Assembly: GCA_030698625.1 (NCBI GenBank)
Contig: JAUYMS010000003.1
Location: forward strand, 83,471-147,470
Length of the DNA: 64,000 bases
Origin: Candidatus Omnitrophota bacterium
Lineage (GTDB): Bacteria > Omnitrophota > Omnitrophia > Omnitrophales > Aquincolibacteriaceae
Reading direction: 5' to 3'
Both the position numbers and the translations under genes were made by a program. The notes beneath the pieces are model-generated. The model did no database searches and was not told where the DNA came from. It saw only the letters and a program-made list of their open reading frames with translations. Positions 218-37,655 of this stretch are shown one piece after another (position 1 is the first letter of the stretch; every line of letters begins with the position of its first letter).

Positions 218-703
218 ATGTATGGCAAAATAGGAGCGGTTTCCGCCCGTTTTCTTATAATTGCGCTGATGCTGGGAGCTCCTTTTGTCGCTGCCGAGGA
301 AGGGCCTCAGACAGCATTGGATAAAGCGCTTCAGGCGGCTTGGGATGATCCCGAGCATCAGCTCGAGTACTACAACGTCTTCCTCAATTCCCAGATTCTC
401 ATACCTACCGTAGACAGGCCGGAAACCACAGGGGTTCGTTTAGCCGGCGACGATGAGACCATTTCTCCCGTTATTATCGAGTCCGAAGGGGTTCAGTACC
501 TCATGCTTTTCGACACAGAAGAGAGACTTGCCGATTGGGCACGCCGGCCGATGGGTTTTGCCGGTGTCCCCGGTCATGCCATTGTGAGAACCATGAAGCC
601 GGACTTTTACTGGCTCTTAAATGTAGGAACCGACTACACTAAACGCTTCGTGCCGGAGGAGATTAGCTGGCTAAAAAGTGAGATTGTAGCGCTAGACGAG
701 TAG
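218..703 (+). CDS. SseB-family-like small secreted protein with an N-terminal signal peptide (MYGKIGAVSARFLIIALMLGAPFVAAEEG). The ORF track extends to TTG at 161; ATG at 218 is preferred.
   Basis: Hydrophobic signal-like N-terminus. The core motifs (YYNVFLNSQILIP…VIIESEGVQYLMLFDTEERLADWA) resemble SseB N-terminal domain proteins. Co-oriented with and 200 bp upstream of the giant gene. Confidence 0.45.
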   Translation: MYGKIGAVSARFLIIALMLGAPFVAAEEGPQTALDKALQAAWDDPEHQLEYYNVFLNSQILIPTVDRPETTGVRLAGDDETISPVIIESEGVQYLMLFDTEERLADWARRPMGFAGVPGHAIVRTMKPDFYWLLNVGTDYTKRFVPEEISWLKSEIVALDE

Positions 704-880: not shown

Positions 881-905
881 ACCCAAATACGACAGGATCA
901 AATTG

Positions 906-1025
906 ATGCGGAAAAAGAATTTCAAAAGGGGATTTTGCATCTGGCAAAAACTAACGGCCGCCTTTGTATCGGTCTGCATGATCCTCTTGAGTGTTGTCGA
1001 ATACGTGCCGGCCGCTTATGCCTCG
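906..1025 (+). other. Sec-type signal peptide or signal anchor of the giant protein (MRKKNFKRGFCIWQKLTAAFVSVCMILLSVVEYVPAAYA|ST).
   Basis: Basic n-region, about 20-residue hydrophobic core, A-Y-A motif before a polar stretch. Confidence 0.55.
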
Positions 1026-4000
1026 ACCGCCGCCATCTCCGCAGCCCAACCGAACTTATTTTCACTCCAACTGCCCTCAGCCCTCGGAAACGTAGAAGAG
1101 TCGTTTCGCGGACTCAGTACAAAGACAGTCATTCTCATCCAGGACGCACATGATTCTCTCGAAGCCCAAGAACATATTGCGGAACTCGTCGACCACCTGG
1201 TGGCAGAAAAGGGAATAAAAACCGTTTACGAAGAAGGTTATGAGGGAGAGGTCCCAAGCGATGAGCTTTTTGGTTTTATCGAGGACAAGGATCACCGGGA
1301 AAAGGTGTCCTACTTTTTTATGGATCGCCTAAGAATCGGCGGCGCCGAATATGCCCACATCAACCGTAAAAAAGATTTTCGTCTCATCGGTGCCGACAAT
1401 ATTGACCTGCACATCGAAAACGTATCACGGTATCAGGATCTGTCCAAGACAAAGCGGGAGACGGTTGAAGACCTTCGGGCCCTAATCGGGCAGGTGACAT
1501 CTCTGGCGCACAGGTATTTCCCCCAGCCCCTTAAGGAGTGGATGAAACTCAAGGAGCGCTTTGAAGCGGGGAAGTTGGGCCTTACCGACTATCTCAAGCG
1601 GATGATGGCGCTCAGCGACGGAGTCGAGGAATCCGAAAGCATTACGGTCGGGCCTATTATCACGCTTCTTGTGGCCGCCGAAGCCTCGGGCGACGACAAG
1701 CTCCTGGAGCAGATCCGTGATCTCGATCCCAAAGCGGTATACCGTGAAATCGCCGACCTCGAAGACCGGCTGGCCGGCATCTACGTGGAGACGGACCGCG
1801 ATCGTCATATTTTCCGCTTCTACCGGGACCTGACCCTGCTCGGACGCTTGAGCGACATCGCGGTGACTCAGACCGAGTATGGTGCTGTTCAGAAGGCCCT
1901 GGCACGATTTGATACCCAAGGGTTGGCGGAATTTATCACCAAGAATACCGGGAAGTCGGTCGTGCTTTCGCGGCAGTGGGAGCGTAATATCCGCAATGCG
2001 GTGCGCTTCTACGATGTGGCCCATGCCCGGCACAAGGCCCTGCGCCGCCGCCTTGAAGAATTTAAGTCCGATCCCGAAGAGGAGACTGCCGCGCTCGTCT
2101 TCGGAGGTTTCCACACCGAAGATATTCGTGAGATCCTCAAAGAACTGGATATATCCTTCCACGTTGTTTCACCGCGGATCACCGAGATGAGCGAGCGGCA
2201 TCAGAAATATTACAAGCGCTTGATGTCGGCCGGCTATCATGACTTTGAATTAAACGACAAGGTTCGTAGGGCGTCGCGCGCCGTGACTTACTTTGAGCTC
2301 GATGGCAGCGCCGCAATCATCGCGCGTGCTCATGATTATGTGCGGAGTGAATTGCGGGATTTGCCGCGCGAAATTTTGAATACCAATATTGAAAAGCATT
2401 TGGGCGGCGAGGCGGTCTTACAAGCGGGCGTGAAGCCGGAAGCACAGACGGACGCGGATTTGCTTGGTCCGGCGCCGGGCATCGAGAGCGTTGTCGGTTC
2501 TGAGCGCTCCGAACTTAGGCGTCTGGAGTATGGGGGGACAACGCTGTTATTCACCGCAGCGGCCGGAAGTGCGGCCGCAGGTGCGGTCCTCGCATTCCTC
2601 CTGCCGTGGATGGGGCTGAAGGCTTTGGCCGCTGCAATCGGCCTCGGGGCGGCAATCGCCTTTGCGGGCAGCGCCCGCAGCCGTATCGCCCTTGCGTCCA
2701 AAGTTCGGGCAGCCCTCGGGGAAGTCACCGTCATCGGCAAGGGTTCCTACACCAATGTCATGGGACACGAGTCCCTCACCAACAGCCTTAGGCCTGAAAG
2801 CACAAAACTCTCACGCGGTTGGGTAATCCTGCAGAAACGCGGCGCAAAAGCGCTCAAAGACCTTGAGGAATCCGTCAAAGGACCGCAGAACCGCGATGCC
2901 GAGGAAAAGGCTGTCTATCAAGCGCTGTATAAACGGGGATTGGTTCCGAAGACCGTCTATCTTGGGCTCATGCCGATACGCGACATCAAGATCAAACCCA
3001 CCGACAGAAACATGCGCGGCATTTACGACGATGCCGAAGGTCAGTTCCGTAAGGACCGGAAGGACAAGGACAGCCGGCTGCCGGATCACCGCAGCGCCGA
3101 TATTGTTCGCATTGCCATTCAGGAAGAGGGCCTGCCCCTGCATGAATATTTCAAGCTTGTCACCGCGAAAAAAGGCACGGCCATCACAGCGCTCGTAGAG
3201 TTTACCCAAAAGCTTTGGGGTGAGGGGTTCATCGACCTTGACCTGCGCATTGATAACTACATGGTGAAGCTGAAAAATGGAAAGCCCGTCACGGATGCCG
3301 ATGGCAGCCCGGTCATTCTCCTGCATGACTTCGGGGCCGTTTTTAAACTTCCGCGCTCGAGAGAAGGCATCGAGTCCTTTCTGAAAAGCACGATCAATAA
3401 GTCCGACATCTCAGCCGGATTTTTTCTCCTTAGAAATCTGATCCACGTCAACCGCAGCTTTGAGCAAGCCGGCAAAAAAACTATCAAGGTGTACAGCCCC
3501 ATCGCAGACTCCCATGAGAATGCCATTGCGAAGAAGCTTTTCCCCGGCATGAGCCTCAAGGGCATTGCCGAGATGTATGTGCTGGGCCGCAACGAGGCGA
3601 ATCACGTTTCGACGGGCTTAAAGACCTATCTGTTGGAATTCTTTCAGCGCGACGGGCGAGGAGAAGTGATCGAAGGTCATATCGAGGAACTGGCGCGTCG
3701 TATTTTCTTGGCGCTTACAGAAGCAAGCGGCGATCGTGACGACCGCACCCGCTCGGAATTAAGGGCGGCGGATGCGGGGTGGATGGCAGAGCTTGACGAC
3801 GCGTCGGCGCATCAGCTGGCCGTCGACGTGATGCGCCGCCTGGAGCACGTGAGTCCGGAGACGCCTTACGAAGCCAAGTTAGGGGCGGGCAGTGTCTTTA
3901 AAATGGGCGAACAGAATATTGCGGTCGAATACGGCACAGCCAAAACAGGCGGTTGGTTTAGTAAGGACACCGCGGTGATGCGCATTGGCGCGCTGGTTTT

Positions 4001-34000: not shown

Positions 34001-37000
34001 CCAGGTAAGACTCTATAATCAATATCCGGAAGTAAAATATATCATGCATTCGCATGAGTACGTGGAAGGCGCGCCGTTTACCGATGAAGTGTATGCCAGT
34101 GAGGCGCTTCAGGAATTTGACGAGATCGTGAAGGTGGTCGGAAAGGAGCCGGGCGTTAAGAATGTTGCCGTCAATCTGAAAGGGCATGGCAGTGTCGTGC
34201 TTGCCGCCGATCCGGAATATTTGCGCAATACCAAATATGTCTCCCGGACTTTTATCAGCGAGAGGACGGAAATGAACGCTATCCTCGTAGGCGGCCGATT
34301 TGACGGCGAGGGCGGGACGCCGTCGGCACTCATCCAAGAACTTCACGGGGCGTTCCCGCCGGGCGTGACGCTGCACAATGGCGGATCTATCGAAGAGTTG
34401 ACTGCGCTATTCAGCGGGTTGAGCGAGTATGAGGTCATTATGTGGTTCCCCGAGATTCCGCGGGGAGAAGATACCCTTACGTCGAAGATTAAGCTGGTCT
34501 ATCCCTTCAAGAAGCTCATCACGGCGGCCCACAACCGAAGCGGCGACCGCCCGTTCCAGGTGATAATGGACAAGGCGCTCGGCGTGCGGAGCAATTTGGT
34601 TGTCGAATTTTACGACGGCGAGAAGCCGGGCATGCGGCTCTTGGACCCATTATCCAACCAATACGGTGATACTACAGACCCGGCGCTATTTGCCGCTGCC
34701 ATCAGGGAGCGGCTTGAGATCATGAGGAAGTTTACGCGCCAAAGAACGGTTTTGGCGGGTGAAGCCAAAGTGCCGCCGAGGAATGCAGAATTTGAAGAAT
34801 ACCTCGGAATCATCCAGGCGTACGGCGAGAAAGTGCATGAGTTGATTCATCCGGCCGAAGGTGTCAAACGGTTCCTCGGCAATACCTCATTCCGCGCTTC
34901 CTATATGTATCCCGACGCTGGCTACGACGACCTGGTCTACATCTCAAGACGGAACGTCGATAAGCGCAATCTCGATGAAACCGGCTTTATCGCAATCGAG
35001 AAAGACTCGTTTAAAAATAGGCAGATCGGCTACTATGCGGACCGGGATCCCATCACGGGCGAAGAGCAGAAACCGAGCGTAGATACCCCGACCCAGGTGC
35101 GGTTCTTTTCGAAACTGCCGAACGTGAATTTTATCCTGCATTCCCATGTGTATATCGACGGCGCACCGTTTACTGAAGCCCTGTGCCCGTGCGGTTCGCT
35201 CGAAGAAGTCGAAGATGTTCTAAAACTCATCGGTCATGACTACAGCAGGACGAATTTCGCGATCAACCTGCGCGGGCACGGCAGCCTTCTCTTCGCACAA
35301 AGTCTTGATTATCTAAAGGAAGATCACCCGTACACGGCCCGCCCGCTTCCCGAGCTTCTCAATACCGACGGATCCAAGGCGAGAGCCGCTGACTACTTGA
35401 AGAGCCCGTATATTCGCGAAGCCCGTATCGTCGGTGACGGAGAAACCGTTACGGCCGAAATCTTGCCGAACTTCGAAACCCTCGAAGCCTTTGCCCGGGA
35501 GGAAGGGCTCTACACACTGCGTGAAGTCGATCTTCGGAACGATCCCGCAGTTTATCAACTCTTTATGGATATCGCCGGCGGTGTCAACCGGCTGCTCGAT
35601 GAGTCCGAGCATATCCGTAACATTGTCCTTTTAAGTTCTCCGCCGGGCGCGGACAGGCAGCAAATGATCGATACCGCGATAGCCGAAACCGCTCTGGAGG
35701 AGACAACGTCGGCGTACTTCGAGAGCGAAGAATTCGCCCGGGAGATTCTCGCCGTGCCGGGCCGCGAATTGCCGGAAGCCTATGTCAACGTACTGCGCCG
35801 CGATTTTCGTGCCGGCCGGTCGGGGCATTATAAGCGGCTTTTAGGTTTTACGGGTTCCGGCGAAGCCATGTTCGAAAGCATGGAAGAGTATTTCAATAGT
35901 GATGCGGCGGTTAAGATCTATAAAGTTCTGTTTAAAGGGCGCGTGGCGGGCAGAATTGTCGTCAACGAGAGGACTAAGACACTCATTGATGCGATCGTTC
36001 TCGAGCCCTACCGCGGAAACTATCTCGGCGATGCCGTGATCGGGCTGCTCGATCAAAAATACGGCGAATACTCGATCGTGATCCCGACCGGTGTTCCTAT
36101 CTATAATTTTCTCATCAAGCGGGGCTTCAAGGTCCTGCACTCGGAGTCGTTCGGCGCCATTGACCTCGATATCATCAGCCGTACTTCGCATAGCGAAGAG
36201 GATTTGGCGCCGGTAAAGGATGTACACCGTACGATATTCGCGCTTTATGCAAATGCCAAGATGGCTGATTTATCGGCTGCGGCGAAAGACCCGAAAGAGA
36301 GCGGCCTTTACAGGAATTTTCCCGAAGTCTACGATCTGCTCTATCAAAGGTTTTCCAGGCGTTTAGGGGATTACCTGGGCCTTGTTAAGGAGAATACTCC
36401 GGATGGCGGTGCCATCATGGACGCCGCTGCGGGAACGGGCGAGGTATCGGTGCCGCTGCTTCAGGCCGGCTACCGGGTCCTTTCAGCAGACCTTAATGCC
36501 GGAATGCTCGAACAGTTGCAGAAAAAGGCAGGCGAGGGCAGCGTTACGGCAAATACGGCCGTCGCAAGCTTCCATGAATTAGGCGATAGGGAGGACCAAT
36601 TTGATACGGTCAGTGTAAGGCAGGCAATCAATTATCTGGTTGGTGAAAAAGAATTGGTCAGCGGCTTAAAGGCGTTACGCAAGCGGATAAGAAACGGCGG
36701 TAAATTCGTGTTCAACGCGCCGAATTACAATCCCGCGACTTTTACGCCGCCCGAGAGAGGGCCGGATCATATCAAACTGGGAACGATGAATGCGATTGTG
36801 TGGGAGAGCAATGCCATCGATGAAAACGGCATACTAACGCACCATCAGCGCGCTCTCGTGTGGGACGACAACGGCCGTGACGATGTCCGTTACTATCATG
36901 ATAAGAATACGTTTCAGATGTATACGAAGGACGAACTCGACTCCGCTTTGAAAGACGCGGGTTTCTCCGAGATCTCGTATTACTCCGAGCACGGCAAGGC

Positions 37001-37655
37001 CTATGACCCCGACGGCCCTGTCCTCTATGGTGTTGCAACGGCAAGCGAGCGCTCCGAGCTGCGGACAGCGACAACGATTGAGGATTTGGCGGCGCGGAGC
37101 AAGGACCTCTCGGCGTATGAAAAGGTAGCGAAGGCGATGCGTAACCTCAAGCAGGCTGCCACGGTGTTTGTGGACTTCAATGATCTCATCAAGTTCTCGG
37201 ATGAGCAGTTGGAAGAGTTCTTTGTGCTCGGCGCGATGAATCAGCGGGCCGTGAAATTCGTGGTTTACAACTATCACAACCGCGATGTGGACGCCAAACT
37301 CGGTGCCTTTCTCGCGCTGCACAATGTCGAAACACCGCGTATCGATGATGCAACTGCCTTTGAACGTTTCGGGCTCAACGAAAAGCGTACGGCAATTCAT
37401 TTCTCCAAATTTGCGCCGGGTAAGGACCCGAAGAGCCGCTGGAGTACATTCGCGGCTTCTAAGCTCAAGCGCTACTACCGCTACACGACCGAAGAACAGG
37501 GTTTGCTCGGCATTGCCCTGCTTTACGCCAATTTCGCGGAGAACCTGCCGGAACTCGTCGAGGACGAGGGCTACATCATCGGCACAGCTGAGACCATCAG
37601 CGACCTGGTCGAACGCTACCTCGCCGAAGACATTGCCGTCTCCATAGCCGCATAA
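906..37655 (+). CDS. Giant multi-domain protein. It is 12,250 aa counting from TTG 903, but ATG 906 with an AGGA ribosome-binding site 9 nt upstream is the likely start. It has a Sec signal peptide and mosaic enzymatic domains separated by recurrent RSELR motifs.
   Basis: Single uninterrupted reading frame of 36.7 kb in the ORF track. N-terminal positively charged segment plus hydrophobic core and an AYA cleavage-like site. Recognisable domain motifs throughout (see sub-features). RSELR occurs 15 times in frame. Confidence 0.85.
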   Translation: MRKKNFKRGFCIWQKLTAAFVSVCMILLSVVEYVPAAYASTAAISAAQPNLFSLQLPSALGNVEESFRGLSTKTVILIQDAHDSLEAQEHIAELVDHLVAEKGIKTVYEEGYEGEVPSDELFGFIEDKDHREKVSYFFMDRLRIGGAEYAHINRKKDFRLIGADNIDLHIENVSRYQDLSKTKRETVEDLRALIGQVTSLAHRYFPQPLKEWMKLKERFEAGKLGLTDYLKRMMALSDGVEESESITVGPIITLLVAAEASGDDKLLEQIRDLDPKAVYREIADLEDRLAGIYVETDRDRHIFRFYRDLTLLGRLSDIAVTQTEYGAVQKALARFDTQGLAEFITKNTGKSVVLSRQWERNIRNAVRFYDVAHARHKALRRRLEEFKSDPEEETAALVFGGFHTEDIREILKELDISFHVVSPRITEMSERHQKYYKRLMSAGYHDFELNDKVRRASRAVTYFELDGSAAIIARAHDYVRSELRDLPREILNTNIEKHLGGEAVLQAGVKPEAQTDADLLGPAPGIESVVGSERSELRRLEYGGTTLLFTAAAGSAAAGAVLAFLLPWMGLKALAAAIGLGAAIAFAGSARSRIALASKVRAALGEVTVIGKGSYTNVMGHESLTNSLRPESTKLSRGWVILQKRGAKALKDLEESVKGPQNRDAEEKAVYQALYKRGLVPKTVYLGLMPIRDIKIKPTDRNMRGIYDDAEGQFRKDRKDKDSRLPDHRSADIVRIAIQEEGLPLHEYFKLVTAKKGTAITALVEFTQKLWGEGFIDLDLRIDNYMVKLKNGKPVTDADGSPVILLHDFGAVFKLPRSREGIESFLKSTINKSDISAGFFLLRNLIHVNRSFEQAGKKTIKVYSPIADSHENAIAKKLFPGMSLKGIAEMYVLGRNEANHVSTGLKTYLLEFFQRDGRGEVIEGHIEELARRIFLALTEASGDRDDRTRSELRAADAGWMAELDDASAHQLAVDVMRRLEHVSPETPYEAKLGAGSVFKMGEQNIAVEYGTAKTGGWFSKDTAVMRIGALVFVQLQRGSARSLTAQLKKHMINLGDLYQQNRGNIIFMPPADYSRPSAQDPVHMITQIAVAAMLASRESFPGAVVTDLGAGDGLLSQIALRLGAKRVVLVDRKYGQLRKAEKLLRGQGYDQFELLEADLTDTRFIKRILEENLDRESTIALVNIGPHKRLYGDANRIVMERIMRWTGLGLIINAGYYGSGWIFPEAHDEEIKYLEELLPHHGFETTVYEDGMGWRRALTAKRGAQRSELRAEEGKAEFIARMEQIFAGVKQSGKKLGTEEFAERMGYPGRWVTARNRAKRLGYPPATLQQYVETGAGKGRARETKQEFAARLEKIFESVRKSEKREKISRKLFMRLTGYTNKWDALLQRARKAGYAWEAISPYVEADEAPSKIEFLKRLRAIADAVKRHKRRDKISRDFFMRLMGYPENWTALIQRARTSGVTLADISEFVESAEETGVDDRGRIREEQLRDAVTTAKEEFGITGQSMQTLNRARRAEYLNRVAALVGYTNRNNFLHLTEKMGVNLAAFDIHRLERLVPYTLTESRQWLIDNLPKPEDTEGRRKWISTIMHLTGMGMLGRTAAYTLLRAVSSGESGFSELDKPVAEELELDLSTVSSSLLGKEPVSMDRSPNLLDFFVTAANRKLEIERLNPSARSRQITMTPLLDNHLFPYHLEQMLTTQRTSTRAGVLVEEVIGELGSELNAEERTLLRAVVRARAAGTRLRYQTHRTVTAANEILFGTRETLGSTGVYHKVKAAVENSEKLRAAFEALRGDLDLSTDRFDRGFFEWLHTGGYLHDAEIHGITRLMVYDIENVPSPHLLPKLSPENKQAFAVAYFRNHHFQQIAENSAAVLDDPGLPVHTLSAGSLRGWIQGRRPRKIVGGIRRLEAALKPGSPVQEVRESSTEHERETGQILAGGGHNKDLLSFINGLHMRRAKVVAFFNLATRISESVTGPKALELKHAYQTLLLGVLKNPELEVDSTPVHLMLMSTIVNHRHDEAFLRKFFETLLVAAHGMSARVSNREAANMLARTIQGSAVYLAAGPKGPITREGLVHAYQRSAAEKKRYLKVQTVRDDAEFRLMGSLAVPVGLRPDNVYFSKLYNAVIAKVYAPVRVISDEDAAGHKVRNRSPKTLRHVRESQKFDLAKIRSEADEHRRRLRQAERLAYDFWGTQGEPGYWPEEKVKGYIWTHYRRWVREVVWENGRRDMGSHDGVDMEDLMDLARDSVAYVGYTYNAPEEFTLNLDDPGSPEERHAMITGVEALVQEKDATLKEFELMVKDKDKDATELKRAGFGLKKAERAKAYVESVLTLHRHYLEGDAEKAANVYFDLAEQRETIERNIMRSLFTSYLRPSILHYKSRRAVKQAFFELKAISLDQPLPDGDGELMDIAIPVLRSRDEEAVIVDDPRLASFRSIAIKQHFAQVRTSALSDTDRDQYIMRLYYGLEPAYAGVDLTQTDIATIVAFHGGALITDERIRQIIARHDKDIFRRVVHLAQADNLKSWDTFMLQLGVKEPDDAPPPVVIPIEENESKIWLGSHIWIATLGDHAGKYLSFKIIAYDRYNPRSADAGYNNVELQKRIYPYMLEIVVRDPTKPEKGNENLVAVFHVHVIHRPTGSVQQLPIIAVRGKPHYFLRVDSGAHDSTLEPAAEKVDRDQGERPEPTEVPEEPVREAAIEEPVDRFKDWHESAIPHLQRQLKSAQATSLGHPDFEELAPVGEHGRIWVAYQKGNVERKAFFHTGIAGEGQAWVGRRYDLSKSLYVYRIVRVSDTGEAESTRYYRLDLDDHGQPTAMGFREFKYDGSVWEKVSIPGPFWLKQRSELRSASNTDDFDPRLIDTYSRLFVEGLLNTVESEGYPEPYQGAVKEARSRLNAVDMPSLADVLQPVEAALKIPVTLDGLSGAADETKVYELARLQYKVRALNKFRVPIREFIKNLMERAEFAARIQSSTEGPVRMGLIHFEEEGHKSGQYSNGLADIVIDWMSTWDASVNAIVFRNIRFDYFFNIVGLANALQSKFFPDAPDPDALVVLLRESLRNAVVWGNKSRPDNLAAIRWRFEGEELVIDVIDRNREEIDFTKKPEPPRGVKPIYYSPRTDPASGGYPGDIKPFIDPAFLTGDRYDFPILDKSGRRLGQVLHLRYPYPQRSELRDEDDEEVLGYVADHADFDTTGFITSRFSGGSNVVGLGDLHTNLAVKAQTIDLIRSGEITHLVMELNGEDLNKALKNRESLREAIRRHFEILVINDEDIESFVDVILAAQTAGVELVFPDPRKTSRPDDPGQETVDMEAALAIGSIVRSDQDAKVLVLFGAEHTRRGLRWPRKEGRSRLTLGENLKTEEGVRYYSVYLESPDRRDTSDYTLVRGDKYRQQGFALTNMASFPRQMLDRAADTDFFRPEEIDAYVQLPLLSYEDYRTLVAAGEDLPKFVLPEFTEDLAVKSSVGENEPERRRAIREKAARLVALLRTQPDADWPIEEMVEEFNGFRLDVSEYAPEIGVIYLWLSPTDSFTISVPTYFAVPSQGIVVHAPEFSDDRYEDEIIQLPIEIAKLLNGNEIEKDSSGIFSPAGSDIYWKEWRQRHAYQYYRTLVGPIGAGAVQAILARESGRKWRVVDFFAGDGSFLRYLSKHLATVQPDTDVDYAMVEKFSELIDQAPRTLAGTAVEIHQADIRHLQDVKAIIGKKPVIVTAFGGLNSGVVKQDDAEAIAKRIYAALPAGSYLVLGGYSAMMVNAKELAAMGFEVLNTGLPHYMVTEDREAPNQLYILRKPYPWYRGGLWRSELRSAFDYDAYRKRQEAGLEVILEEIDALRTDGRWEKMPLSARLQLIGERADVVPLDWGAWLELLEKTGMWFGPEREKMEDPTDQVEATMTGDYQILQAPSMRQPQQGETYSRYLTSYGACDCLVLTLYHPGTKVGMIDHLYLERKKNPAERIAGALKTMHEEYGIDPREVRAEISGGQMDLSNFKAIQILEALETHEVPIYFFQALDFPLVMLDGYYPYAEGDGHVALDLETGRHYRLHDIIPPAQKRRHRSELRKGKPIEDYLKELENEKAVFGPDNAGEFSESHRYVDGILKKLILTAGFDPAEYSLYLVDDPEPKAWIQGRYPAVFISLGLLRFFGRHRLSQDALAHLLAHEVLHLRQHKEDEHYSGPSSWSEYYAEYYANEYDADVRALRLMAEAGFSIQDAESTFEKLREGMGKNDYSPLGSYPQMRTRSDRIKQIRDYGRWPDSARAAPQAMPQEVLREAMRFSLRRQKWHRANRINQVKELSELIETADALNDLTFILWSGLGRLKKRRVLKSAKVPHAVESALVTRLAALPIWPEYLSADTRDLAAKLLGKFLAATVYGKFMERTVLIDHELLNEKALLDELSEIFHSAKNAKDVLDLISAAIFVTMPQRIALGRETAGDAQKSYAAYQNRWHAEPRRGGDTVGWVYTWEQFLGRALLEEVPYVPIAGRQVRWGPFIRVVGWIQGAVRFVLGRFVSIDWIQVRDPLAGWTAADLGRVYEAGAGRTWGGYHIGPMRHSNVVGIDHWLFQAAINHPELVKAMDTDTFRRFVKDATKIAVAKGPGHSDDPETQEAKMRNMIYEAASLDAAKREVIQNLLGNDYDVFGFFRTGIESFPDTWIFGENAPGTGYAYAEKRMDDLIRQLHARRGSISGMVLHHSEVLHASDRLAESAKLTQTEHLRLMAHLAKTEWYSADMMWHSLLGWESGRVQWIPSFLGQADDELNAFIDLDLRARLGDGVWESLPVTGRFIFYAYLNDIYQLPADWEAWDREVQSWSTEQIRLLHRVVAQSTNRPVFDTDARLDREAIDRRPPLPYRRSREELLLRLSVLGLLKEQGVSLKKYLPPVELGRSAPSGAFGFADQLADLPRGRKEDNPRVRRAMDHLFHMFRLEKGRSPWINRTDIEKNGEQGMTAILGYVFAETGETPADMADRIAHWLPATAYRNWVLYLIFMHHYLGRTLGVKIDRKRLGDTSYMAEVWASVSDNQRESARHFIREKIAPLMVQDARLEGLNLARVFDHFIHEKLHEVDEAAYEKALPGFQDVRYFVPGTVLTQLDLMMGGVFSPGISEQIADAASDPQDILEQISTAYPRASAERDRLLVELADHARADSGVLKDIMPLLDGPWYKQEIGVRALRSIRASQSTTSVDDSLKLIENWLPSATPIRDGLLHEVIQEEVGTLPELNAVEEKLFALQPNEQRRLRGNQAVALMGLEFFQAIFGYGTPMASKLDLLDWFFFEGGKPDILRRYEFHFRISFEGFIEESGDLAKNEPEVAREVRKRLLAFVLDGDQGILSDDDATDELFNRLLARWLPENTEFDIVIRTVLESLIGLSDRLRKREILMHLLAGPDDLSALGNDPELRQAKVAKLILEANGLVGIKVGQVLANSALVTDMPVPMRTELANLQDRADPMDRAVSLRILDQIHNGKLHDHYPRIGRVLGSASTSVVYDAWHRSGRHVALKLLRPTARNRTVGDLAMLKLIPADVIERLNAKNIAIPEWLENYLGLLVGRVERLVMPELFYTVEAQSMDRFRVRQLARGSALRIPEVVENPGDDLIAMELIEDAVPVSDEAGINTRGRQMGDVRRDIAQEMIVEVHEGEYHGDPHPRNFLVDKDGRLWMIDLGAVYEVSPKSAAFLISLVAALHMGADIRPILADLLTANADPAALESAISEAARVETIPEKIAQIFLTLDQQALLPEDLALTQRLFLQGGHIFEGLSLWDLMQIGEQLKDGPQRSELGSETPVVREGLRPDLTPFIGIGVHRKDHLSYGNSAAIEGAEKLTDFLRDRDLLHEIQLTVETEAQSQIGREIASKLDRVPDATMRLIVDGAFMQKCCSEAVLGIFDHLEAKPGRFAELHLPLDLILYWDDRQMRDSPPEEKEEYIAMQVLPNLERRGFGYKAYGVNHQILAERDPPKGGETRLVVKLWHSAKEMENWADSLAAKPLRSELRALEPVMPVKKVLVMTGEYSYMPFDKEREWERYVVDYLRKAGVEAEFVYANGAGGTLRRFEEEFDEIGLVIATDDVLRGVRERERLIGRNPVPYILMKTTYLRMDEPELEELGNAVYVHSGLGTLDELKEIIPEIVGNAEGAVYEPFWTGEGIEAKPAREGVEHPAVELLEELRQDLTNPTFLKKIYRDTTDYDAEPLTARFTLIPGYSLPAFPMTPASFRDDVHRRIIKEVYSILPHVIEFPVEATGRAPVVIGADSDEGIARWAKTMRVGSRFDQWISDKMPLVHIEQSLNRIMTEIDGKERANKALRRSVYRKLGWRVHDLEIKSEAAGDEAGQTIFNVMGTWLLANPEAVTRAWVAEDEDGAAAGMLVLKRTIANETFGEHREMVNSAIAIASDAATRGKGIAPRMIRESFEAMRQRGIRYYFADIDYRNKPSFRTFIKTAAAAGATVTHFPEMTTSREEERPFLIDLFSDQPAPRDLPEALPSDPDEAWAYVLAQGLMQEPSDEYSWTPPAADGDRAVREYRVKDVTEEIEADEDAGTWIDFQELYDDKVHAKLRDITEYPDPAGHEAMMRGFEVQPDGSFDTVKLEDGAYSAIVRIADRAAVQDTQQAFRKFVDAIAKVFPADVRDQVRVWETGEDNPHIGTAVFQVPEVLLGGKQPRLQPRHIEPLQELVREMTQDEETIPLTFLGYGIGADGGFVRLYSDPAGRFMKLRNALLLKGHKVSQMYASGRGTNIIAMTGGRILHLPYSADAAIAARQKDRVLEIVRDRAQAFQSQWEQNLAEPQILDVDGLTWVLEDKWLTERNEQGVEDVFFPFGGRSELRSLSEDLLAELAAEYAVSRLTSGRNSAEEQELMLKTMRSDVHKAILWRYKGLEFELRERIEEVVFEAVQAAVRTYDGVRLSYLDYFYATAQEAILHFFAKSVPAAKRPYLLSEPLEAYLRFLSLENRRPELDEFLGLTVNDMKNEDYLVLQRETDAANYEDSISVPVRAAAPENQLPKPVQIANAGMVRLAKAFGIQAADITAAMIHSVPNTEWAVLSLFFGIDGELIQDPEQIARRLTELGYRDANNEALRGEKVSDYVVRGLNRLQNRETGRTRLADALGKKPTEITPDLLQALTSREEALIRYKFGIGKSRLMTHLEIAEKLTKEGFSFNDGVHVTKTLYRILQKLKTAQTGWQLLAADLGKPEEEARRDFEKNAAKMTQLETLAVTHYYGLGVNRIKDKTRLAKHLSDLTHETIRRNRLYRLLARGLAVLRGEKKRVRVKSAYQPPIISEIPEEVGVTGDELLQVMRAAAGDQSLAEALVPVRDAWYALHPLGREILIINFGLGVTAAKSLPEISKRLKESPYWVEKSDPAKTTLTRHRRLALADLKQRVSGLNRLAEDTGVSEEYLPGIISQGLALEQKRVLKMTFGLDTERIVPDKLIVDIFRDAWSEEINAMRVRTVRRDALQRIREFAVNAGYADESVLTKRKKDMSKRTPRPPKWTRERVDQLIAESADEKLRATILHRQGLGGLVNAASGFYGSWQKALEAHHRDITKINIRKTPQRSELRADSPELSDSRDAEYKKRLTDILEQRALIMELRELEPASDEMVAVILERLGEYAASAKASLVDVEDFKFVLRLVTNPAWRTGKFSEKMKALTHLWGYVVFTAVREHRMNPQLRSSVDHLITDMLGAEFENRAPLRRILINTEVGSPYHEKPLHGEEQMLGSDFVYLIKSLAKNLNLSGRLAERNDRLVGPILRAFEGRYDFTLTEAERGKILQLMEGNDLLAIFVSAMDNGLTRPPSREMTLEDIRKIRGKFREVVADSIGSYPVSARDRILVRILQKQPELGRELMAEAQAAVSYSRKPIDFEAAGASTVKRRKGVNVADTEGFGDFAVKHPDLHAVLTSRESLLTLMQTAALVRDFFPYTLTAPDKLQTPVQFAIEYGMYLPLGHGYYLTPISGSFKRHLLFTMDDKNRPVMTVPIKIPGKIPGRRPALNGDLDRYRDAREVFGDDMEIAGAMGTVEPAGLESVMLYGEEREVTEKDHLRVLVLEGPEAGWRVEYLRHKDLQRISDHYPKYHGDASLVADDIARSILRGVAQWHALNYLGKGPGEGSGTDLHTGNWELLTPPLNGDPEQGISVRNIIDLASLHQYVEDRAAFDGQRMWDLKTVIDARDVLTGPGVTFSLLALHLKENEHDFLEDPHDLFEKYTAIYSEEYEAVKQIAKRPPPMSYREIYTTILGETHEAPLIITGLTGAGKTILAENYEKYLREGEVEVPAHLVHSDGFLRYSVMALLIRLLITLGWIKVDALTKEGFIQRHYFDLEKRDRFVDEVKAGKYEGKQLVIEGIFSDILFAQALNAKTLLIEANSASVYEERYVDRSMKDKKRLKLPAQFLARTLISNRLNQQLLDSRENHDLVLNLDDIFKPKLTVNRPPKKAELRRSGLLKVIVDALTAPAGIRERLTADGVKFGSVPEPYVSTFDLEGLPWVFTQYRNEDKDSPLLSLDELKEQALTLTGTLEVKFDGGARNAGVFLGYVQEVPHPVVIKYFQAGVSDMDAYDRALELYMAQIVAFSGVGPEFYGVLVEDGEIVGYAMQAAPGAFATQTSDLLYLMRYLYQSGDADNKAVQQNVMRIEETMARYAMVPVDGHLNVLLSRTGHISLIDAGNVRPASELAEFRMPSWMSSEEKVKQLFQLMQAYLQKRRPLITRRGAIHTLLDHTQAEHAAPLVSVTTREMMKDGLHESLVKYVRQGGHLVLTTPAFKEEAFLSAIDGIHRNFAETGEIELLGRIHFIASDNNLKDIFVYESDAGGYRLLPDDPMEPDPLLKLVRYLNTAGRKVLPLMSYDYESASVPRRAYFDTAHRVFSQTPHAGKYVAIWDIEEITERLAERAPEELEKGRKELPAQQDFMEWTFESTPFEVPAGNQVKVIVGEKGRGAPGFVWAGVNDWEKTYLIPLVQNPATGRHEAVLPAGTTAFTFYWRDSPKAAGERWEGRDFHVRSAERSELRAAAVNITETVLPNAGLKGMASQDAKVLIAELDGDFLLESKTWPERNARTFTAAERKIFETGEGLTPFSEFDLTHDDVASVTHSIYDRTSGIIGIRAAVEDKAGTVRYIRFSGAGTNEMEKLKTLMPPISEMTAEGTVLRVSAGNQGDLAGNFTVHSRKERGWEFFGANDEPWRGARYKAFVQLENGKRMLGEVELVGEAKDNRIKQVFITPVGGRERVELDAMQTRSVIVAYTLGWGETPADELLRKNYAMSSDIRHLLAFPFFRGGPQFYNQTVLTRERYKAAMNFRPLDFDIVDMTGNAIPVAELLGQLDKYGYVAKDTADEVVKPGDYFIADENNIRLIFHPAVYPVNILVTSQDGEKAAFVSIQGVSGNLGANYWNVFEWIQEQLPWAFAAFALDNGKDPSWQSYNEDGTEAELLVTGRDLVNATVLVTKRDGFQRSELRLPARTAEEMMTRREFIPRAALAVAAGLVVLYESPNIVLAADEEKGEVTLFLLSHGTVEDFETVKPHVEAVIKRLLDAGKTVHYFVEAADLEAELSLTSLIYAALAPDQSADLREVFGNLYTEPLPEAFLETSFEQDQLFVPLLQGVERGLQYMKDHNEIPADRIADYELVLKLLPVLRKIKEKFRGIVRGTASPDSDDVTREVAIERLTKLFDEFYDATDHSYEPDGLAKAPFAHRLHYALNRDKDGKPWGFWGAQEMYLREGTFAPELGTRLLVHRERLLTPGQLDAYTTASVQYSKLFEALGFPGNPKSVIEIEGKFPEAVFYATQGTAEERLALVRKAYYEAGARFESAVMGGRDRALSQEAVRLTPEDKDASVITRGLAHVAAGRLLADNAATDVRDMKQIQGRAQPAVDAPNTEAELREMRGGNPGDAIKLKVGQHMVVGLISDLVREVHKDHLKAYRERYENLAAGIPDTLQGEDREKEIEKQMNQAPYFRAMDPAPLPKRLERFFVEDRRSIWNAMADHPEQVEEFLLQAFRIHAAYQRVVAATLRKKKETEPEEDPVEMAGRIYATYLAMLKLRSASIPTPLEAEELPFKLITKAVADGVYEGDVKTFLDTFEAEAEKVMDFKPSLLRRERYRSELRDDEPVKEIPLYMAYARHLNAADTFDFAKPFFDEAIQKTSRKDGRPNGIMIIEHVDSNLAAMFMNAMHRVVDPVQFPDSVVGAWFRQQLTIPKQWTPYEKMESFLVQYRQDQPFRTEVDNQYQAFLKHIGVERIYGIYDLKQRIGPASVLQHAELDYFIEKGIGQAALEPARFETAATAYLFGELDKEIRQALTQRRYDDAANLHLKSIDLLEDSGKVRDRIMNQFVGELIREDPERAIYHFRGFNHERNHDLLTGDGQKAAGVLVGSRLGQRPVFSTTTFQAMDGAEKNLLLIHFMNEVLDHLLHEEKLSSHRSIQEFLAFHLSLTQGLEREFKSLEQPEDYDAWFREIFDAANETVQRKSLSLGLALLEVLEERNILSRSELRTEGGDKEKPRGQITRRTFLDWMVKAANAAAAASGVSPGALLEAAVSIPAEKPDLSLAALARRFAHNPDSLKELEQGVAWLQAFTILYGTDKKEEDYELGLINLKLAVLDGVRTRKESEGVTALSEEEAASRLETALNSLESIAQSEGLKKAPHLLERLRSLMAEPFSFKAALSARTALIRHAWGTVLGPRSELSRVAKDVAEWYGRDLRAAQAVMAEIAEQLTPEGFRKIRQRELIFERNMDNYFDRSLLPEIARGEAEIDWSNLLEDDYRARMSRFKDLAGQLPAAVRKQVFANPKVREAERSYRQWQRESWKRKEERETSADPESLKMIIVGGRFDDEGGRPSSLVNQIHAALPAGTKRVNGGRFDAIPGLAKTLADYDVIIWFPDIPNDKAKYRNLKARYPDKLLVTSKRNHEGSYSDLEVVDHALKLKSNLVIEFSDTIPFNMRLLDPLGNVYEDTQDASSLAKSMTRRLKVIAKVRRQGTKRVAVASPVKVPDEPEFFDIIRDQAARFHEIMSERRPETEENEEFCFRCERGFPSMREGDFAFVSKRGAANTERHFTRKDMVPVDLASFRETGEINFYGPNKPAVDTPVQVRLYNQYPEVKYIMHSHEYVEGAPFTDEVYASEALQEFDEIVKVVGKEPGVKNVAVNLKGHGSVVLAADPEYLRNTKYVSRTFISERTEMNAILVGGRFDGEGGTPSALIQELHGAFPPGVTLHNGGSIEELTALFSGLSEYEVIMWFPEIPRGEDTLTSKIKLVYPFKKLITAAHNRSGDRPFQVIMDKALGVRSNLVVEFYDGEKPGMRLLDPLSNQYGDTTDPALFAAAIRERLEIMRKFTRQRTVLAGEAKVPPRNAEFEEYLGIIQAYGEKVHELIHPAEGVKRFLGNTSFRASYMYPDAGYDDLVYISRRNVDKRNLDETGFIAIEKDSFKNRQIGYYADRDPITGEEQKPSVDTPTQVRFFSKLPNVNFILHSHVYIDGAPFTEALCPCGSLEEVEDVLKLIGHDYSRTNFAINLRGHGSLLFAQSLDYLKEDHPYTARPLPELLNTDGSKARAADYLKSPYIREARIVGDGETVTAEILPNFETLEAFAREEGLYTLREVDLRNDPAVYQLFMDIAGGVNRLLDESEHIRNIVLLSSPPGADRQQMIDTAIAETALEETTSAYFESEEFAREILAVPGRELPEAYVNVLRRDFRAGRSGHYKRLLGFTGSGEAMFESMEEYFNSDAAVKIYKVLFKGRVAGRIVVNERTKTLIDAIVLEPYRGNYLGDAVIGLLDQKYGEYSIVIPTGVPIYNFLIKRGFKVLHSESFGAIDLDIISRTSHSEEDLAPVKDVHRTIFALYANAKMADLSAAAKDPKESGLYRNFPEVYDLLYQRFSRRLGDYLGLVKENTPDGGAIMDAAAGTGEVSVPLLQAGYRVLSADLNAGMLEQLQKKAGEGSVTANTAVASFHELGDREDQFDTVSVRQAINYLVGEKELVSGLKALRKRIRNGGKFVFNAPNYNPATFTPPERGPDHIKLGTMNAIVWESNAIDENGILTHHQRALVWDDNGRDDVRYYHDKNTFQMYTKDELDSALKDAGFSEISYYSEHGKAYDPDGPVLYGVATASERSELRTATTIEDLAARSKDLSAYEKVAKAMRNLKQAATVFVDFNDLIKFSDEQLEEFFVLGAMNQRAVKFVVYNYHNRDVDAKLGAFLALHNVETPRIDDATAFERFGLNEKRTAIHFSKFAPGKDPKSRWSTFAASKLKRYYRYTTEEQGLLGIALLYANFAENLPELVEDEGYIIGTAETISDLVERYLAEDIAVSIAA
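2520..2700 (+). other. Two predicted transmembrane helices (GGTTLLFTAAAGSAAAGAVLAFLLPWMGLKALAAAIGLGAAIAFAGSA) immediately after the first RSELR.
   Basis: About 50-residue Ala/Gly/Leu-rich hydrophobic stretch flanked by charged residues. Begins 5 residues after RSELR at 2505-2519. Confidence 0.5.
3050..3420 (+). other. Protein-kinase-like fold domain 1 (catalytic-loop-like DLDLRIDNYMV and DFG motif ILLHDFGAV).
   Basis: Order and spacing of D-x-x-x-x-N and DFG motifs typical of ePK-like, RIO, Kdo or LPS kinases. Motif-level only. Confidence 0.35.
4140..4560 (+). other. Class I SAM-dependent methyltransferase-like domain 1 (motif I VTDLGAGDGLLS, followed by an acidic motif II VVLVD).
   Basis: Gly-rich DxGxGxG nucleotide-binding motif, then a hydrophobic strand ending in an acidic residue about 20 aa later. 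Rossmann-like periodicity. Confidence 0.55.
4722..5330 (+). repeat. Three tandem ~68-aa protein repeats (consensus …EF..RL..I…VK…KR.KIS…FMRL.GYP..W.AL.QRAR..G…..IS.YVE).
   Basis: Read from the translation: repeats start near 4722, 4941 and 5141. They are conserved at the amino-acid level but diverged at the DNA level. Confidence 0.6.
11640..12240 (+). other. Class I SAM-methyltransferase-like domain 2 (motif I RVVDFFAGDGSFL).
   Basis: DxxxGxG motif with hydrophobic beta-strand context and a downstream LVLGGY strand. Confidence 0.4.
13250..13620 (+). other. Zincin-like metalloprotease motif region (LAHLLAHEVLHLRQH; HEVLH at 13344-13358), M48/SprT-like context.
   Basis: HExxH embedded in a hydrophobic helix. 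A downstream Glu/His-rich segment (KEDEHYSG…EYYAEYYANEYDAD) could supply a third ligand. Confidence 0.45.
17090..17940 (+). other. ABC1/UbiB-family atypical protein kinase domain.
   Basis: N-terminal ABC1 signature GQVLANSALVTDMPVPMRTELANLQDRADPMD (compare GQxLSxRxDLLP…LxxLQDxVPP). Nucleotide-binding segment IGRVLGSASTSVVYDAWHRSGRHVALKLLRP. Catalytic HGDPHPRNFLVDKDGRLWMIDLGAV (compare HADPHPGN…IDFG). Confidence 0.75.
19900..20160 (+). other. GNAT-type N-acetyltransferase-like domain (motif A IAIASDAATRGKGIAPRMIRESFEAMRQRGIRYYFADI).
   Basis: R/Q-x-x-G-x-G/A acetyl-CoA-binding-like motif followed by a helix and a beta-strand with an aromatic residue. Motif-level only. Confidence 0.4.
22170..23190 (+). 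repeat. Array of at least four sigma-70 region-4-like (LuxR/ECF-like) helix-turn-helix repeats.
   Basis: Repeats LTSREEALIRYKFGIGKSRLMTHLEIAEKL…TKTLYRILQKL; LETLAVTHYYGLGVNRIKDKTRLAKHLSDLTHETIRRNRLYRLLARGL; LHPLGREILIINFGLGVTAAKSLPEISKRL…TLTRHRRLALADLKQRV; LEQKRVLKMTFGLDTERIVPDKLIVDIF…AMRVRTVRRDALQRIREF. All fit the pattern L..RE..VL.LRFGL……TLEEIG……VTRERIRQIE.KALRKL. Confidence 0.45.
25480..25900 (+). other. P-loop NTPase, uridine-kinase or PRK-like (Walker A LIITGLTGAGKTIL at about 25534-25557).
   Basis: GxxGxGK[ST] preceded by a hydrophobic strand. A downstream acidic or hydrophobic Walker-B-like strand (QLVIEGIFSD). Confidence 0.5.
26380..26800 (+). other. Protein-kinase-like fold domain 3 (VVIKYF beta3-Lys-like, DGHLNVLL catalytic-like, ISLIDAGN DFG-like).
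   Basis: Motif order and spacing as in APH, choline-kinase or ePK-like folds. Motif-level only. Confidence 0.35.
29157..29255 (+). other. Internal twin-arginine (Tat)-like signal peptide MMTRREFIPRAALAVAAGLVVLYESPNIVLAA|DEE, located 8 residues after an RSELR site.
   Basis: T-R-R-E-F-I matches the S/T-R-R-x-F-L Tat consensus. It is followed by a hydrophobic h-region and an A-x-A (LAA) signal-peptidase-like site. The position is internal (aa ~9419). Confidence 0.5.
33207..34271 (+). repeat. Duplicated module, copy 1 (~355 aa): a Rossmann-like domain (MIIVGGRFDDEGGRPS…) plus a class II aldolase/adducin-like domain (…YIMHSHEYVEGAPFT…NLKGHGSVVLAA).
   Basis: Clear collinear amino-acid similarity to copy 2 over the full length. 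HSH and GHG metal-ligand-like motifs at positions typical for class II aldolase or epimerase folds. Confidence 0.55.
34272..35325 (+). repeat. Duplicated module, copy 2 (MNAILVGGRFDGEGGTPS… / …FILHSHVYIDGAPFT…NLRGHGSLLFAQ).
   Basis: Same architecture and motif order as copy 1. DNA diverged, so this is an ancient tandem duplication. Confidence 0.55.
36380..37030 (+). other. Class I SAM-methyltransferase-like domain 3 (motif I AIMDAAAGTGEVS; motif II RVLSADLN; post-I FDTVSV; motif III GGKFVFNAPN).
   Basis: All four canonical class I methyltransferase motifs in the correct order and spacing. Confidence 0.65.

Follow-up and report, generated by a model that had tools for sequence, protein, structure and literature searches.

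RSELR punctuation in a 12,249-residue protein of Candidatus Omnitrophota, a putative exported polyprotein with a conserved head and tail

A stretch of 64,000 nucleotides from a metagenome-assembled genome (MAG) of Candidatus Omnitrophota (contig JAUYMS010000003.1, positions 83,471 to 147,470; hereafter the window) encodes a protein of 12,249 amino acids (aa), which we call the giant. We found that the pentapeptide RSELR recurs 16 times along this protein. On the evidence of the searches described below, the giant belongs to a multi-copy Omnitrophota family and is longer than any other member seen. The layout of the family is fixed: a conserved N-terminal domain (the head) and a conserved C-terminal domain (the tail) enclose a variable middle. 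The first-pass annotation of the window had overlooked both the regularly recurring RSELR marks and the two conserved end domains. We suggest that the giant may be an exported, beads-on-a-string polyprotein that is processed or read at its RSELR sites, a proposal to which we give roughly an even chance. The features discussed are collected in Table 1.

The motif was first noticed in an alignment of the tails, just upstream of the C-terminal domain. In the giant, the 16 exact copies compare with 0.035 expected from composition (P ~ 2e-37), and the next most frequent unrelated 5-mer is present in 3 copies. The sites delimit 17 segments of 49 to 1,915 aa. Codons of both families are used for Ser and likewise for Arg, and Leu is written with several codons; this difference between sites ruled out a DNA-level repeat or recombination site. 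The other five frames contain no copy, and neither does the rest of the window (26 kb). Because the codons differ and the motif is absent from the other frames and genes of the window, RSELR is shown, as judged from codon choice, to be under selection at the protein level. Two near-copies, PQRSELG (aa 5754, 18165-18179) and GPRSELS (aa 10628, 32787-32801), have the usual upstream Pro/Gln context but not the last Arg; they fall within two of the longest segments and may represent sites that have decayed, or alternative ones.

In the relatives of the giant, the motif generalises to R[SA]E[LIVMA]R. Its density is 1.8 per 1,000 aa in family ORFs (open reading frames) versus 0.24 in the other ORFs of the same loci, a background that consists mostly of family members missed by the filter. 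The sequence around 556 sites is less hydrophobic (a fraction of 0.15-0.24, down from 0.33); Pro is nearly absent at position +1 (0.01), Ser, Thr and Ala are enriched at +1, and Asp and Glu are depleted at -1. In the AlphaFold2 model of the tail, the motif lies in coil with a confidence (pLDDT) below 50. BLAST matches between cargo regions cross a motif in 12.8% of cases, versus 42% in 200 shuffles (minimum 30%), and 33-40% of the match ends fall within 30 aa of a motif, versus 15-17% expected; these matches are not mutually independent, and the comparison is supportive rather than a strict test. A single module illustrates the same behaviour. The giant's aa ~596-948 and a homolog in the relative L048 both end exactly at RSELR and have no similarity beyond it, and the shared module occupies different places in the two proteins. 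Taken together, the motif is shown to mark module boundaries, in hydrophilic linkers of low predicted confidence.

The placement of the motif is also regular. The first copy follows the second catalytic His of the head at a median distance of 108 aa (137 of 150 proteins), and a copy lies 150-260 aa from the C-terminus in 72 of 83 proteins. The spacing between copies is bimodal rather than exponential: distances of 25-50 and 200-400 aa are over-represented, and those of 50-150 aa are too few; pieces of 25-50 aa number 80, as opposed to 44 expected under exponential spacing. The preferred form of the motif is shown to be common to the paralogs of one genome. In three paralogs of one MAG, RSELR was used in 7/7, 10/10 and 9/9 motif sites; in another genome, RSEAR dominated in two of three paralogs and was the commonest form in the third; and RSEVR was the commonest form in three of the four paralogs of Taenariivivens baikalensis. 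Furthermore, an alternative mark, [GA][AKQS]SLG, reaches 1.46 per 1,000 aa in proteins devoid of the Arg motif versus 0.13 in its users, so that the two marks are nearly mutually exclusive. The alternative mark without R[SA]ExR was seen in P0127, P0090, P0103, P0114, P0136 and others; P0127 contains twelve copies, six of them in an extended context of the IFxVEGKSLG type.

The family itself was delineated by several searches. Using the first 1,500 aa of the giant as a query, 64 relatives of 887-2,554 aa were obtained. What they have in common is limited to aa 1 to ~540 (35-48% identity) and, in sequences with a complete C-terminus, the last ~180 aa. Their middles differ and include NUDIX, amylase, epimerase, glycosyltransferase, radical SAM and WD40 domains. 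All labelled relatives but one (Planctomycetales) are assigned to Omnitrophota/Omnitrophica, and the others are MAGs of "uncultured bacterium" or carry no taxonomic label. A scan of one genome per species gave 162 relatives, many of which extend past the 10 kb of flank taken. Individual genomes encoded several paralogs, and one MAG had at least five. At database scale, the last 230 aa used as a single query sequence matched nothing, and a tail profile was required; it recovered 246 proteins among 1.84 billion cluster representatives. Every one of the tail matches listed ends within 5 residues of the C-terminus, and AA or SA is the C-terminal pair in 131 of 136 family proteins. The head was present at the N-terminus in 54 of the 87 tail-profile proteins of at least 900 aa. 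The maximum length among the relatives was 7,989 aa, which leaves the 12,249-aa protein of the window as the longest member seen.

A headless subfamily (P0114, P0103, P0136, P0131, P0142, P0145, P0146 and P0096) keeps both the signal peptide (…AIFVSxFFxLFNxFEYATPVYAA/R, with the slash at the cleavage point) and the tail; therefore, the signal and the tail are the most constant parts of the family. In one MAG, two divergent paralogs lie ~20 bp apart (L043 and L065, CAYSSX010000010.1), and large motif-bearing ORFs were observed directly 5' of other family members (L038 and L064).

The head of ~440 aa has an alpha/beta fold with the parallel beta-sheet core of the TIKI/erythromycin-esterase/ChaN/TraB-like superfamily. 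Its residues D80-x-H82, E110, R375 and H403 are invariant in 190/190 complete domain alignments. The catalytic 2His/2Glu set of the superfamily is represented by E3900, H3902, E3930 and H4030 in RRSP and by the pair H85-E113 in Bcr135 (PMC6254334). The +28 spacing from H82 to E110 is the same as that of H3902/E3930 and H85/E113, and the first acid of the head is Asp where the superfamily has Glu; these residues were equated on the basis of the order and spacing of the motifs rather than by superposition at residue level. The head profile found no match among PDB sequences. There was no Pfam match to a C39 or S8 peptidase in aa 1-1000, where the TIKI/Ere-like domain is found instead. Since the catalytic residue set is invariant, the head is most likely an active hydrolase, a peptidase or an esterase. 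Loss of these residues in the heads of members with another motif, which would tie the head to RSExR, was considered and rejected, as all of them keep the residues.

The tail occupies ~190 aa at the extreme C-terminus. Its interpretation as a HAD phosphatase was ruled out, because the catalytic Asp of the DxD at the end of strand 1 is not conserved. Possibly it represents a C-terminal signal of a new kind, for sorting or assembly.

We propose the following scheme for the giant. The chain begins with a Sec-type signal peptide, continues with the head and a variable string of cargo, and ends with the tail. The cargo consists mostly of orphan, cysteine-depleted modules, together with a few kinase-, acetyltransferase-, methyltransferase-, aldolase- and metallopeptidase-like folds. 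The RSELR sites would serve as recognition sites for a co-evolving reader. Cutting after the second Arg is the most likely form of this recognition, and we infer it with a confidence of about one half. Full cutting would produce up to 17 products of the segment lengths given above, and the 25-50-aa pieces between neighbouring motifs would come off as small peptides. A candidate for this protease is the head, because its superfamily includes site-specific endopeptidases and because the first site always follows the head; a protease whose gene lies elsewhere in the genome is no less likely. It may be speculated that the released cofactor-dependent products act inside a host or prey cell, because many of the cargo folds need ATP, S-adenosylmethionine (SAM) or acetyl-CoA. 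Action in the host cell is also suggested by the reported host-dependent lifestyle of the phylum.

Several points weigh against this proposal. Instead of being cut, as we propose, a short motif conserved in linkers could serve for docking or be modified, and some family members have neither motif. Members with the other motif, or with neither, also retain the catalytic residues of the head, and a headless subfamily exists; therefore, the head is not tied specifically to RSExR. Moreover, enzyme folds that depend on cofactors are an odd cargo for an exported protein. The topology was derived from hydropathy only, and if aa 547-587 formed a single membrane crossing, the cargo would be cytoplasmic; about a quarter of the relatives show one transmembrane-like peak after the signal peptide. 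The mutual dependence of the BLAST matches in the boundary comparison belongs here as well.

The absence of any cleavage is somewhat unlikely, in our estimate. In that case the giant would work uncut, as a single huge multi-domain scaffold that is exported or tethered to the surface, and RSELR would be a linker motif that recruits a partner, is modified or just marks a preferred hinge. The position of the motif in hydrophilic, low-confidence linkers is consistent with such a role, and a form shared within a genome fits any co-evolving reader, not a protease alone. The published view of these proteins as membrane-associated multi-enzyme giants also leaves cleavage open. However, Ser can be replaced by Ala (RAExR), so modification of Ser is not a general role of the motif. 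In addition, the near-absence of Pro and the small residues at +1 are typical of scissile bonds, and the fixed sites after the head and before the tail, together with the 25-50-aa spacers, resemble the release of separate units.

Regarding localisation, the N-terminal signal peptide claimed by the first-pass annotation is of the Sec type, as judged from sequence features, and it is conserved through the family, headless members included. A crude hydropathy scan of the giant revealed three transmembrane-like segments in total. The two adjacent helices at aa 547-587, separated by PRF, are the sole strong ones beyond the signal peptide and probably form a membrane hairpin. After the signal peptide, 89 of 188 relatives have no transmembrane-like segment by hydropathy. 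The giant contains 10 cysteines (0.08%), versus 1.06% in the neighbouring genes; the family value is 0.13%. Because of the signal peptide, the relatives free of transmembrane segments and the cysteine depletion, we infer that the head, cargo and tail would be exported by Sec and lie outside the cytoplasm.

It is unlikely, in our view, that the giant is instead a membrane-anchored cytoplasmic multi-enzyme, with the head alone outside, aa 547-587 as a single crossing and ~11,600 aa of cargo inside. This arrangement would place the cargo where ATP, SAM and acetyl-CoA are present, and its folds (ABC1 kinase, GNAT, SAM methyltransferases, P-loop and sigma-70-like helix-turn-helix) are of cofactor-dependent cytoplasmic types. 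A single transmembrane-like peak after the signal peptide was seen in 46 of 188 relatives, and an inner-membrane-anchored cytoplasmic reading was retained by Nielsen & Lui for their class with transmembrane segments only (10.64898/2026.06.07.730766). On the other hand, in the 89 relatives without a later segment the head and cargo are on the same side, and the two helices split by PRF in the giant return the chain to the outside. Export is also the better fit for the cysteine content, which is 13-fold lower than in the cytoplasmic and membrane proteins encoded nearby.

The content of the cargo was assessed with Pfam on overlapping 1,000-aa tiles (E <= 0.01; aa ~7,500-10,000 under one tiling only) and with NCBIfam on 14 motif-bounded cargo segments, where all matches were under the curated cut-offs. 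The first-pass annotation had described a string of many unrelated enzymatic domains. The mosaic, non-repetitive character of the protein was borne out, while the recognisable domains number only about nine and cover together about a tenth of the length; the rest is dark, and most of the protein is unannotatable. The kinase domain reached 117 bits against NCBIfam UbiB, under the family cut-off. PDB sequence searches of the giant gave matches limited to the kinase, GNAT and methyltransferase domains, and none in the first 5,000 aa. Of the 14 cargo segments scanned, nine matched no NCBIfam family and one more gave a single marginal match. The stretch aa 2700-4200 (window 9003-13505) had no relative at E <= 1e-5 among 5.8 billion proteins; its composition and codon usage are normal overall. 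It should be noted that a DNA-binding, sigma-70-like module is odd for a predicted exported protein, and that the relative P0012 also contains Sigma70 r2 and r4 Pfam domains.

Repeats are scarce in the giant, in line with the statement of the first-pass annotation that adhesin, Ig and RTX repeats are lacking. BLAST of the protein against itself detected only three ~70-aa copies (aa ~1270-1537) and one duplicated ~340-aa module (aa ~10766-11471), and no Pfam repeat family was found. Readings as an adhesin, an RTX protein or a nonribosomal peptide or polyketide synthase (NRPS/PKS) were rejected, as neither Pfam nor self-BLAST provided supporting domains. Condensation, adenylation, carrier, ketosynthase and acyltransferase domains were all absent at Pfam E <= 0.01, and there were no modular repeats.

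We regard as improbable that the giant is a prey-adhesion, cell-wall-degrading protein of the "Archaeovorin" type (West-Roberts et al.). Those giants come from the same phylum, methyltransferase and peptidase domains are on the West-Roberts list (10.1101/2023.11.21.568195), and the family relatives carry NUDIX, glycosyltransferase and amylase domains. The question of whether the product is cleaved is also the same. However, no SecA_DEAD, C39 or S8 peptidase, HEAT/TPR, glycosyltransferase, glycoside hydrolase or lytic transglycosylase domain was found in the giant (Pfam E <= 0.01), it has three transmembrane-like segments and not dozens, and the 26 kb downstream contain no type II secretion genes. 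Archaeovorin-type giants exceed 30,000 aa, as opposed to 12,000 aa here, and have numerous transmembrane helices, with HEAT and glycosyltransferase domains the commonest. As for SecA DEAD (PF07517), the negative at E <= 0.01 includes aa ~7,500-10,000 under one tiling only; the distant relative P0061 carries PF07517.

The giant ORF is a real, intact, native and complete gene. The single continuous frame of 36.7 kb described by the first-pass annotation holds 12,249 codons and no in-frame stop, which in DNA of 55% G+C is far beyond chance. In the ORF listing of the window, an in-frame TTG at 903 extends it to 903..37655 (+), 12,250 codons; AGGA is located 11 nt 5' of the ATG at 906. Scans for a consensus promoter and terminator at both ends of the gene gave no match. 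Synonymous-codon preferences of the giant correlate with those of the 21 other genes of the window (r = 0.96). Across every 1,000-codon block the correlation is 0.71-0.95, lowest in the block aa 3001-4000 (r = 0.71), and G+C at third codon positions (GC3) is flat. The amino acid composition is of high complexity and globular-like over the whole length. The family head occurs once, at the start, and the family tail once, at the very end, which is evidence against a chimera or a multi-gene fusion.

That the ORF is an artefact of misassembly, a read-through of several genes or a still-open decaying pseudogene is very improbable: the sequence is a metagenome assembly, but the frame is free of stops, codon usage is uniform and host-like, exactly one head and one tail stand at its ends, all 16 RSELR copies are confined to it, and relatives up to 7,989 aa keep the same layout. 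About 20 or more long antisense ORFs (maximum 454 aa) overlap the giant, for example 13950-15314 (-) and 19977-21239 (-), and an antisense ORF over the head recurs in 36 related loci. Most probably they are not genes but shadow ORFs of a high-GC3 gene.

The first-pass annotation had considered proteins of more than 10,000 aa very rare, which does not hold for this phylum, where they have been catalogued by the thousands. ORFs longer than 20 kb were reported for the majority of genomes in several classes, including 77 of the 116 from Velamenicoccia and most of those from Omnitrophia (PMC10066038, Seymour et al. 2023), and Omnitrophota proteins of up to 85,804 aa were reported in 2023 (10.1101/2023.11.21.568195, West-Roberts et al.). 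In the survey of Nielsen & Lui (2026), the longest protein measures 147,155 aa. The 5,761 proteins with 10,000 aa or more were grouped into clusters there, 24-28% of the Omnitrophota contigs sampled carried a protein of this size, and a "multi-enzyme" class rich in methyltransferase and GNAT domains was defined (10.64898/2026.06.07.730766). The giant resembles these class 1 multi-enzyme proteins in phylum, in its length of at least 10,000 aa, in having many Pfam families with none dominant, and in the lack of a tandem-repeat scaffold. Its methyltransferase and GNAT content matches their "Module 1", and the signal peptide, the few transmembrane helices and the sequence-unique cargo are further likenesses. 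The proteins of at least 10,000 aa in that survey differ in having a mean of ~22 transmembrane segments, versus 3 in the giant. Consequently, the size of the giant is ordinary for Omnitrophota, and this kind of protein is already known.

Other known systems share separate features with the giant. Like MARTX toxins, it is a very large, predicted exported protein in which unrelated enzymes are joined, and MARTX effectors are released by cutting of short unstructured linkers. Moreover, RRSP, an endopeptidase of the TIKI superfamily that occurs in MARTX arrays, is among the structural matches to the giant's head. MARTX toxins use type I secretion without a Sec signal, have glycine-rich/RTX repeats and contain a cysteine protease domain that cuts after Leu. 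In contrast, the giant has a Sec-type N-terminus and, according to Pfam, neither repeat families nor a matching protease domain, and the head of its family is N-terminal, not one effector among many.

Gingipains and HagA of Porphyromonas gingivalis, which are cargo of type IX secretion, combine a Sec signal, a conserved C-terminal domain and Arg/Lys sites cut after export. The giant is similar in its Sec signal, its conserved extreme C-terminal domain and its domains separated by Arg sites. However, the type IX C-terminal domain is a beta-sandwich of ~80-100 aa, whereas the tail of the giant is a predicted ~190-aa Rossmann-like alpha/beta domain, its cargo is enzyme-like rather than adhesin-like, and the phylum is another one. 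Viral polyproteins have short lineage-specific cleavage motifs between their modules. These, as well as the "polyvalent proteins" of phages and conjugative elements, resemble the giant in being encoded by one long ORF of unrelated enzymatic modules; the giant differs in its chromosomal location, host codon usage, housekeeping neighbours and Sec signal.

Table 1. Positions of the giant ORF, its domains and RSELR sites, and selected neighbouring genes in the window (position 1 is the first letter of the 64,000-nucleotide stretch).
Feature	Window position	Strand	Residues (aa)	Details
SseB-family gene	221-703	+		Pfam 1.2e-16; own signal-peptide-like N-terminus
Giant ORF	906..37655	+	12,249 in total	ATG start at 906; stop 37653-37655
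Sec-type signal peptide	906..1025	+	1-40	MRKKNFKRGF basic n-region; hydrophobic core aa 16-34; AYA/ST cleavage-like site
Conserved N-terminal domain (head)	1038..2315	+	~45-470	TIKI/erythromycin-esterase/ChaN/TraB-like alpha/beta core, large helical insert
RSELR site 1	2343..2357	+	480-484	directly after N-terminal domain
RSELR site 2	2505..2519	+	534-538	49-aa spacer from site 1 (aa 485-533, 2358-2504)
Two adjacent hydrophobic helices, probable membrane hairpin	2544..2666	+	547-565, 569-587	hydropathy
RSELR site 3	3750..3764	+	949-953	
Class I SAM-methyltransferase-like fold, weak	4218..4397	+	~1105-1164	Pfam, NCBIfam
RSELR site 4	4701..4715	+	1266-1270	followed by three ~70-aa tandem repeats
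RSELR site 5	9417..9431	+	2838-2842	
RSELR site 6	10392..10406	+	3163-3167	
RSELR site 7	12276..12290	+	3791-3795	
RSELR site 8	13035..13049	+	4044-4048	
M48-like zinc-peptidase segment	13140..13367	+	~4079-4154	Pfam; HEVLH (HExxH) at aa 4147
ABC1/UbiB-like atypical kinase domain	17172..17891	+	~5423-5662	Pfam 1.5e-25; PDB 5yjz, 7cy2
RSELR site 9	18795..18809	+	5964-5968	
GNAT acetyltransferase-like domain	19860..20123	+	~6319-6406	Pfam, PDB sequence search
RSELR site 10	21273..21287	+	6790-6794	
Sigma-70 region-4-like helix-turn-helix	22155-22259	+	~7084-7118	NCBIfam RpoD/SigA subfamily, E = 5e-8, 32 bits
RSELR site 11	23463..23477	+	7520-7524	
P-loop, weak		+	~8200-8345	Pfam/NCBIfam
RSELR site 12	27786..27800	+	8961-8965	
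RSELR site 13	29118..29132	+	9405-9409	
RSELR site 14	31053..31067	+	10050-10054	
RSELR site 15	32205..32219	+	10434-10438	
Two class-II-aldolase/AraD-like segments	33897..35147	+	~10998-11051, ~11320-11414	within duplicated ~340-aa module
Class I SAM-methyltransferase domain, clear	36414..36701	+	~11837-11932	Pfam 4.8e-11; PDB 3d2l
RSELR site 16	37050..37064	+	12049-12053	low-confidence coil directly before C-terminal domain
Conserved C-terminal domain (tail)	37065..37652	+	12054-12249	Rossmann-like alpha/beta fold; ends ...SIAA-COOH
M28 peptidase gene	50954-51880	-		13 kb downstream of giant
DUF748-like gene	51883-52701	+		13 kb downstream of giant

The surroundings of the giant are chromosomal, as proposed earlier, judging from the downstream housekeeping genes and the host codon preferences. 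Housekeeping operons had been placed on both sides; they were found 3' of the giant (ferredoxin, nuoN/M/L/J, the ATP synthase operon and other housekeeping genes), but the upstream part of the window holds one SseB-like gene only. The ATP synthase and PNPase proteins encoded in the flank are identical to NCBI proteins from a MAG of Candidatus Omnitrophota. No virion or transfer genes were seen in the window, and no link was found between the giant and the downstream genes for the M28 peptidase and the DUF748-like protein. A dedicated conserved neighbour, either a protease or a secretion system, was sought across 80 related loci and not found. Over these loci, the antisense shadow ORF of the head formed the largest neighbour "cluster"; an ABC-F ATPase (10 loci) and FabI (7 loci) came next. 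Between 38000 and 44000 of the window, the AT skew of the + strand climbs to 0.19-0.25 over the minus-strand nuoN/M/L, which probably reflects the T-rich codon usage of membrane proteins and not a replication signal.

In the 2023 preprint on the giants, the cleavage points are stated as unknown, and it is left open whether one chain or many products are formed (10.1101/2023.11.21.568195). Term searches in PMC10066038, 10.1101/2023.11.21.568195 and 10.64898/2026.06.07.730766 found no description of a head or tail, a punctuation motif or cleavage sites; "polyprotein" occurs in neither preprint on the giants, and "cleav…" and "motif" are absent from 10.64898/2026.06.07.730766. The motif strings were found only in alginate-lyase papers and one unrelated materials paper, in a library that is incomplete, so an earlier description is possible. 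What appears to be new is the family architecture and the RSELR punctuation, which provides the first concrete candidate cleavage sites for Omnitrophota giants. The motif predicts exact termini and fragment sizes for each of the 17 putative products, and it offers a rational way to divide the giants for structure prediction. In addition, the head, tail and motif together form a signature for sorting thousands of "sequence-unique" giants into families.

For the phylum as a whole, we tentatively suggest, and with less confidence than an even chance, that Omnitrophota may possess a large family of paralogous Sec-exported polyproteins, in which a TIKI-like head and an undescribed Rossmann-like tail bracket freely shuffled modules that would be freed at a genome-specific motif (R[SA]ExR, or [GA][AKQS]SLG in other lineages). 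Once freed, the cofactor-dependent enzymes among them might work in host cells or on them. If the polyprotein reading is true, it would answer whether and where the Omnitrophota giants are cut. If the sites are indeed cleaved, these bacteria would employ a cellular polyprotein strategy whose scale is otherwise known from viruses and a handful of toxins.

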